From Escherichia phage kaaroe, in the sequence record MN850574.1: DNA of 64,000 nt. One strand, written 5' to 3'. Below the pieces are notes generated by a model. It had not been told where the DNA came from and ran no database searches. It saw only the letters and a list, made by a program, of their open reading frames with translations. Of this stretch, positions 20,961 to 21,377 are shown in pieces. Position 1 is the first letter of the stretch, and every line of letters begins with the position of its first letter. A program made the position numbers and the translations under genes.

Positions 20961-21377
20961 ATGGAATTTAAAGCAATTCAAATCATGAAAGGTGAGCATA
21001 AAGGTACTATTATTGGTGGACACTTCGCGCCTATGATTCTGGTATCCGAACCGAAAGCACTGATCGGCGCTAAAGTAATTGTTAGTAAAACTTTCGCAGA
21101 AGACCATGTGATCACCGCAGAAGACGTCGATTCGCTGGCACTGCACACAACTAGCTTCCGTCCGGTGATTGTAGATAATGGTGCTCCGGTTGTCGAAGGT
21201 GGTCAGCATTTGAATGTTAACGTATTGTTACGAGAAATGTTGCTGGACGCTGTTGAACATCCTGAGAAGTACCCGCAGCTTACAATTCGCGTTTCTGGTT
21301 ACGCAGTGCGCTTCAATAGTCTGACTCCAGACCAGCAACGTGATGTTATCGCTCGTACCTTTACCGAATCTCTCTAA
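20961..21377 (+). CDS. grcA: autonomous glycyl-radical cofactor (GrcA/YfiD-like)
   Basis: 138 aa; C-terminus [12 protein letters not shown]...[35 protein letters not shown] contains glycyl-radical motif RVSGY and matches remembered E. coli GrcA almost residue for residue. Confidence 0.8.

Follow-up and report, generated by a model that had tools for sequence, protein, structure and literature searches.

The vs.6 gene of Escherichia phage kaaroe, a Krischvirus ortholog of T4 vs.6 encoding a GrcA-type protein with a host-like but apparently not recently acquired glycyl-radical domain

The gene described here lies on the plus strand of Escherichia phage kaaroe DNA, at positions 20961–21377 of the window, by which we mean the whole stretch of 64,000 nucleotides analyzed. 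On the basis of the ORF itself and of its Pfam, NCBIfam, PDB, PHROG and T4 similarities, it was identified as a vs.6 ortholog encoding a phage GrcA of 138 amino acids plus stop, with an ATG start at 20961 and a stop codon at 21375–21377 (ORF listing and sequence). A strong Shine-Dalgarno sequence, AGAGGTGA, was read 3 nt 5′ of the ATG (20950–20957, plus strand), its first base being the final base of the stop codon (20948–20950) of a 41-amino-acid ORF located between vs.8 and vs.6 (20825–20950, plus strand), which gave a full-length match to PHROG 13848. This small ORF is also kept, and annotated, in Phi1, JK32, JSE, phiS and MIZ4. Downstream from vs.6, an intrinsic-terminator-like hairpin followed by TTTTCGTTTT occupies positions 21387–21411 of the same strand (RNA fold of −15.6 kcal/mol, z = −3.82). 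The immediate neighbors among the named genes are a vs.8 homolog upstream, used as a synteny marker (20340–20825, plus strand; Phi1/JSE annotation, PHROG 1488), and an nrdC.11 homolog of the RlaP/nucleotidyltransferase family downstream (21464–22162, plus strand; Pfam PF10127, 55 bits, and Phi1 annotation), as in T4-type synteny. Upstream from vs.8, a Peptidase_M15_4 protein is encoded at 19888–20277 (plus strand), annotated in relatives as an endolysin or peptidase M15. An additional gene, absent from the window, lies between this gene and vs.8 in JK32 (L005 242–817); it is annotated as a “pathogenesis-related transcriptional factor and ERF protein” and possibly encodes an AP2-type mobile endonuclease.

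No copy of the late-promoter motif TATAAATA was found near vs.6, the closest copies being located at 16092 and 26267, and the search for an upstream sigma-70-like promoter returned a single weak match, within vs.8 (20683–20711). Given the absence of the late-promoter motif nearby and the weakness of the sigma-70-like matches, vs.6 is probably co-transcribed with the genes upstream. Two antisense ORFs on the minus strand (20925–21209 and 21228–21449) were set aside, as both homology and the dN/dS pattern fit the plus frame instead. A scan of the whole window (1–64000) against Rfam yielded no family at the gathering score.

The protein consists of two parts: an N-terminal half corresponding to the phage-type GrcA N-region (aa 1–76; 20961–21188, plus strand), delimited by nucleotide conservation and hhalign, and a C-terminal glycyl-radical domain of the PFL type (aa 77–138; 21189–21374, plus strand), delimited by identity to GrcA, PflB and TdcE and by Foldseek. 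The Pfam Gly_radical model was matched by aa 78–119, with a score of 61.3 bits (cutoff 22.2), and the top match among solved structures was E. coli GrcA/YfiD (6owr, E = 5.8e-33), with PflB coming next (E ~6e-27). E. coli K-12 GrcA is identical to the vs.6 protein at 56 of the 62 C-terminal residues (90%); identity to E. coli PflB residues 698–759 amounts to 50/62 (81%), and the C-terminus of TdcE is likewise 81% identical to the domain. A 13-residue stretch of the radical domain is fully conserved in the comparison with GrcA, PflB and TdcE. The RVSGY radical-site motif (R110–Y114; 21288–21302, plus strand), located by alignment, forms part of a complete RVSGYAV loop extending from R110 to V116, in which G113 (codon 21297–21299) is aligned with GrcA G102 and PflB G734; G113 and the radical motif were invariant in 72 homologs. 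The AlphaFold2 model, based on a 72-sequence alignment, had a mean pLDDT of 81.9, with values of 90–95 for the C-terminal domain. The sole significant Foldseek match to this model was the YfiD NMR structure 6owr (E = 6.9e-7), with the glycyl-radical domains of other enzymes ranking below it.

The GrcA-specific model TIGR04365 gave the window protein 133.8 bits, a score below its 170-bit equivalog cutoff; T4 Y06I scored 151.1, also below 170, and E. coli GrcA scored 234. As even the validated T4 Y06I falls short, the 170-bit cutoff leaves out the whole phage branch, and the sub-cutoff score is treated here as a property of the cutoff and not as evidence against function. The sequence features of the GrcA class are present, in the form of a small stand-alone protein with a radical loop, a PflB-like C-terminus and a GrcA-homologous N-region. 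A preliminary description of this DNA had proposed that a virulent phage carries a GrcA (YfiD)-type glycyl-radical protein, and Pfam, TIGR04365 and the 6owr match agree with that proposal. The near-identity to E. coli GrcA claimed for the last 60 residues was counted at 55/60, the BLASTP comparison with GrcA suggested as a check aligned residues 37–138, and the radical loop, the loss of which had been named as an argument against the assignment, is intact, with RVSGYAV complete and G113 in place. The ORF and its resemblance to GrcA are thus confirmed, far beyond chance.

Like E. coli GrcA (YfiD), the window protein is a stand-alone protein of ~14 kDa with a C-terminal glycyl-radical domain, but it has the PflB-like residues M93 and L95 where the E. 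coli protein has T and E; a leucine at the position of L95 is also present in other enterobacterial GrcAs. The residues L90, M93 and D124 of the radical domain did not occur jointly in any of the top-120 bacterial GrcA matches listed. It differs from PflB in corresponding to only ~60 C-terminal residues of ~760, without the catalytic barrel and without Cys418/Cys419. The coding sequence bears the marks of strong purifying selection: comparison with Phi1 revealed no nonsynonymous differences at a pS of 0.08–0.09, and comparison with the bacterial genes gave a pN of 0.06–0.12 for a pS of ~0.75.

The N-terminal half, rightly described earlier as diverged from GrcA, had a pN of 0.52, and the BLASTP alignment begins only at residue 37. 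Profile comparison of 50 phage-type with 54 bacterial GrcA N-halves by hhalign nonetheless recovered the relationship, with a probability of 97.8% (E = 9.4e-13, 61 columns), and the phage-type and bacterial proteins have in common the motifs (G/A)IQI, close to the N-terminus, and AR.IV(S/A)K...ED. This profile homology of the N-halves implies that the phage protein descended from a whole GrcA-like gene, and we therefore regard vs.6 as the descendant of a complete GrcA-like gene rather than of a bare PflB tail. The N-region of YfiD is needed for activation by PFL-AE (PMC8683613). The YfiD N-terminus has been reported to be disordered, whereas some beta structure is predicted for the N-half of the window protein, with short strands at residues 4–8, 17–20, 38–41 and 66–69 of the AlphaFold2 model (pLDDT ~58–87). 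For this half, Foldseek returned KOW/SH3-like matches alone, all of them non-significant (probability ≤0.33).

The window belongs to a Krischvirus, one of the RB49/Phi1-like members of the Straboviridae, which are lytic relatives of T4 infecting E. coli and Shigella. The nucleotide sequence of vs.6 is 100% identical to that of Phage ELT4 and 98–99% identical to those of RB49, Phi1, ECD7 and other Krischvirus genomes; the gene is annotated vs.6 in Phi1 and RB49, and “autonomous glycyl radical cofactor” in several newer records. PHROG 1209 was matched from end to end (positions 1–121 of 121, 173.5 bits). The T4 vs.6 protein (NP_049730.1), annotated “autonomous glycyl radical cofactor GrcA”, is 58% identical to the window protein by BLASTP over residues 4–138 (E = 4e-47), and 87% identical in the last 62 residues. 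In T4, the order of genes is vs.8 – vs.7 – vs.6 ... regB – vs.1 – vs – tk.4 ... tk – rI, and, judging by the genes annotated in Phi1 (98% identical to the window in this region), a T4-type order also surrounds the window gene. The two proteins also have the same two-part architecture and the N-terminal motifs KAxQI..G.HKGTI and IVSKTF.ED, but they differ in length: 18 residues more are present in the window protein, which has insertions following residue 18 and at about residues 61–70. Because of the 58% identity and the common gene order, the window gene is considered to be a syntenic ortholog of T4 vs.6 (Y06I).

Phage GrcA is thus already known, as the vs.6/Y06I family, a kinship that the preliminary description had missed. 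According to Wagner et al. 2001, as cited in PMC8683613, YfiD and T4 Y06I are spare parts of ~14 kDa in which a glycyl radical is installed by the PFL-activating enzyme and which, in complex with oxygen-cleaved PFL, restore its activity; these two proteins are the only validated spare parts (PMC8683613). A vs.6 gene with a Gly_radical domain was present in 6/6 T4-like genomes surveyed, and a role in nucleotide metabolism was speculated for it (PMC1524935). Homologs were detected by tblastn in 1,580 phage records, many of which are already annotated as GrcA, including Tequatrovirus, Krischvirus and T4-like phages of Klebsiella, Cronobacter, Enterobacter and Yersinia and, beyond the T4-likes, T5-like Demerecviridae, phages of Aeromonas and Vibrio, and an Erwinia jumbo phage. 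In the T5-like phage FFH1, a 122-amino-acid GrcA-like protein with a different N-half is encoded beside a tRNA cluster (L010 1054–1422); in the last 62 residues, its identity to the window protein is 76%. Taken together, the family kinship, the 1,580 phage records and the existing GrcA annotations mean that the identification is right but that the gene is not new.

The high identity of the C-terminal part to its host counterpart had also been read as the result of recent capture from an enterobacterium. At the DNA level, this part is only 73–77% identical to grcA and pflB, with saturated synonymous sites. Across 5,426 complete E. coli genomes, the closest match was pflB, with 75.7% identity over 185 nt, and comparison of the last 60–62 codons with E. 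coli grcA and pflB gave 73–74% nucleotide identity, a pS of 0.71–0.79 and a pN of ~0.09–0.14. The bacterial comparators chosen were the GrcAs closest to the window in the protein sequence of the C-part, with 57/60 residues (a Klebsiella cluster, Nissabacter and contig L009); no bacterial protein with an identical 60-residue C-part occurred among the matches listed, 57/60 being the best. The grcA genes of these comparators were 74–77% identical in nucleotide sequence to the 3′ part of the window gene, with a pS of 0.75–0.86. Between enterobacterial genera, pS ranged from 0.3 to 0.7, below the 0.71–0.86 that separates the window gene from the five bacterial genes compared.

T4 vs.6 itself (NC_000866.4 63557–63919, L004 6558–6920, minus strand), which lies outside the window, provided a positive control. 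For nucleotides 179–363 of the T4 gene, each of the 5,426 E. coli genomes has a grcA with 98.4% identity; against grcA of MG1655 (K-12), 181/185 nt are identical and the match ends exactly at the stop codon. The dS is 0.08 in this 3′ stretch versus >3 in the N-half, and the 5′ half has no DNA match. With a 3′ half nearly identical to host grcA and a strongly diverged 5′ half, T4 vs.6 is a chimera, its 3′ half having come from a host only recently, which points to host-to-phage gene conversion of the radical domain. A second positive control was found in the Klebsiella phage RCIP0102 (L012 601–963), the radical-domain DNA of which is 93% identical to Klebsiella grcA, with a pS of 0.21, versus 86% to E. 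coli grcA, which suggests that conversion tracks the host. In another Klebsiella phage, Miro (L011 601–963), the C-part has the same amino acids as Klebsiella GrcA at 60/60 positions, yet pS is saturated, at 0.77.

That the 3′ half of the window gene was recently copied from an enterobacterial grcA or pflB might seem to follow from its 90% identity to E. coli GrcA at the amino-acid level, and such captures are real in this family, as T4 (98%) and RCIP0102 (93%) demonstrate. The T4 3′ half is host-like in its DNA, however, and that of the window is not, with its low nucleotide identity, high pS and lack of an identical C-part among the bacterial proteins listed. We consider a recent copy highly unlikely, and the idea of recent capture is already contradicted for the sources tested. 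To judge from these comparisons, the C-part of the window vs.6 is an ancient host-like protein sequence maintained by selection, and not the product of recent transfer.

Within the krischviruses, the two halves of vs.6 also have different distributions. The first 210 nt were ≥97% identical to the window in 58 Krischvirus records, but the last 189 nt were ≥95% identical in only 36. Protein clustering revealed that N-halves that hardly differ are combined with six or more distinct C-terminal cassettes, hybrids included, and the divergent cassettes had 69–81% amino-acid identity to that of the window. In the comparison of the window with JK32, dS was 0.23 in the N-half and saturated in the C-half. 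No donor of the divergent Krischvirus cassettes was found; for the JK32 cassette, the next-best match among phages was only 73% identical.

The vs.6 terminator and nrdC.11 are separated by an inserted endonuclease gene with NUMOD4 and HNH_3 domains in all four of the divergent-cassette genomes fetched (JK32, JSE, phiS and MIZ4), but not in the window or in Phi1. Comparison with these four genomes places the empty, endonuclease-free site of the window at positions 21425–21450; the tracts comprising the divergent cassette and the endonuclease gene in the relatives correspond to L005 1501–2558, L013 901–1895, L014 901–1928 and L015 901–1956. Identity in 30-nt bins was ~100% until ~21165–21210, then fell to 43–93% up to the insertion point, and was back at 97–100% in nrdC.11, past this point. 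The JK32-type endonuclease gene and the JK32-type cassette co-occurred in the same 9/9 records. The JSE-type endonuclease gene was found in JSE, 011D4 and Whisky; phiS has a version of it with 81% identity. Intronless homing with co-conversion is known from T4-type phages (Belle 2002 and Liu 2003, as cited in PMC2993671), and endonuclease genes number seven in JSE and two each in RB49 and phi1 (PMC2993671). As for the free-standing homing endonucleases of T4-like phages (SegF, SegG and MobE; PMC2993671), the HNH gene of the related krischviruses is located immediately 3′ of vs.6 and flanked by a divergent tract of 230–280 bp covering the 3′ half of vs.6; the difference is that these alleles reside in other genomes, the window having no endonuclease gene at the site. 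We interpret the vs.6 pattern as the signature of intronless homing with co-conversion. This signature in its relatives makes the window the endonuclease-free allele, and we infer that the 3′ end of vs.6 in this allele is the cleavage target.

More broadly, a hot spot of recombination may exist in the 3′ half of vs.6, where the sequence would have been overwritten time and again, by host grcA DNA in T4 and the Klebsiella phage or by HNH-linked foreign cassettes in the krischviruses. This generalization is put forward tentatively, as plausible but somewhat short of probable. If it holds, homing into the allele of the window would target the terminator region as well as the end of vs.6. No description of such a cassette-overwriting hot spot in vs.6 was found in the literature searched, and the mosaic radical-domain cassette may be the only part of these observations that is new.

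As regards function, we consider it likely that vs.6 is the Krischvirus ortholog of Y06I and, as such, a GrcA/YfiD-type spare part for the host PFL. Its ribosome-binding site, terminator and purifying selection suggest that the phage gene is expressed after infection. By analogy with Y06I and YfiD (Wagner et al. 2001, via PMC8683613), host PflA would then convert G113 of the RVSGYAV loop into a glycyl radical. The radical-bearing C-terminal domain, in effect a copy of PflB residues ~698–759, would dock on host pyruvate formate-lyase cleaved at G734 by oxygen, and docking would, by the same analogy, restore the conversion of pyruvate to acetyl-CoA and formate. The biochemistry behind this mechanism is that of the T4 protein, whose overall identity to the window protein is only 58%. 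The presumed benefit is that the fermentative supply of acetyl-CoA and ATP would persist despite the shutoff of host gene expression by the phage, presumably in micro-aerobic hosts or those in which oxygen fluctuates. No in vivo phenotype of phage vs.6 mutants was found in the searchable literature, in which vs.6 expression, or phage GrcA in infection, appears only in citations of Wagner 2001 and in comparative-genomics mentions.

A different target had been suggested by the anaerobic ribonucleotide reductase NrdD and its activase NrdG, both of which were indeed found in the window, neither of them adjacent to vs.6: NrdD at 38616–40478 (plus strand; Pfam NRDD, 585 bits) and NrdG at 41875–42384 (plus strand; TIGR02491, 165.9 bits, cutoff 126.1). 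The protein could, on this account, be a spare part for the phage NrdD, radicalized by NrdG, given that the RVSGY pentapeptide is also present at the NrdD radical site, that a role of vs.6 in nucleotide metabolism has been speculated (PMC1524935) and that spare parts for further glycyl-radical enzymes are conceivable (PMC8683613). However, RVSGY is all that the two sequences have in common: BLASTP gave E > 1, a gapped alignment yielded 24% identity to the NrdD C-terminus, and the Cys-rich stretch preceding the radical loop of NrdD is absent from vs.6. The domain is instead of the PFL type, with 81–90% identity to PflB, TdcE and GrcA. The earlier ideas of a module with nrdD and nrdG and of a rescue factor for cleaved NrdD do not hold up, the two genes being located 17–21 kb downstream, with dozens of unrelated small ORFs in between. 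A spare part for NrdD is therefore extremely unlikely, and from its sequence we take the target to be a host PFL-type enzyme, not NrdD; the role of vs.6 would then complement that of the anaerobic NrdD/NrdG without physical linkage.

If PFL is the target, the protein might still act as a decoy or inhibitor, titrating the PFL-activating enzyme or occupying PflB without catalysis and thereby redirecting pyruvate flux. The phage-specific N-half, diverged from that of bacterial GrcA, would be compatible with such a role, as the YfiD N-region governs activation by PFL-AE, and the radical domains of Krischvirus alleles can diverge by as much as ~30% in amino-acid sequence. The T4 ortholog nevertheless restores cPFL activity in vitro, as reported in PMC8683613, and the window allele is conserved over the whole 60-residue domain that fits the PFL barrel, beyond the AE-binding loop, which makes a decoy very unlikely, albeit the least so of the alternatives weighed here. 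The location of the divergent tract in related phages, over the 3′ half of vs.6 and the terminator region and beside the HNH endonuclease genes, raises a further possibility, that a functionless vs.6 is retained solely because homing endonucleases use it as a conserved landing pad. Against this, the frame is intact, with a dN of 0 relative to Phi1 for a pS of ~0.08, no frameshifted or truncated Krischvirus alleles were seen, and the radical motif invariant in 72 homologs belongs to a family spread over 1,580 phage records and several phage families; of all the alternatives, we find this one the least credible. A spare part for host PFL remains the preferred reading.

As a discovery, the gene itself carries little weight, phage GrcA having been known biochemically since 2001 (T4 Y06I) and being present in ~1,600 sequenced phages. 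The value of the analysis lies rather in a correction: a close match to a host protein in amino-acid sequence does not, in this case, amount to recent transfer, and the DNA test separates the ancient similarity kept by selection in the window from the recent host-to-phage conversion in T4. If the 3′ half of vs.6 is indeed repeatedly overwritten, the divergent cassettes could differ in their rescue of host PFL, and the HNH-linked cassettes constitute natural allelic variants for probing the radical-domain residues needed for this rescue.
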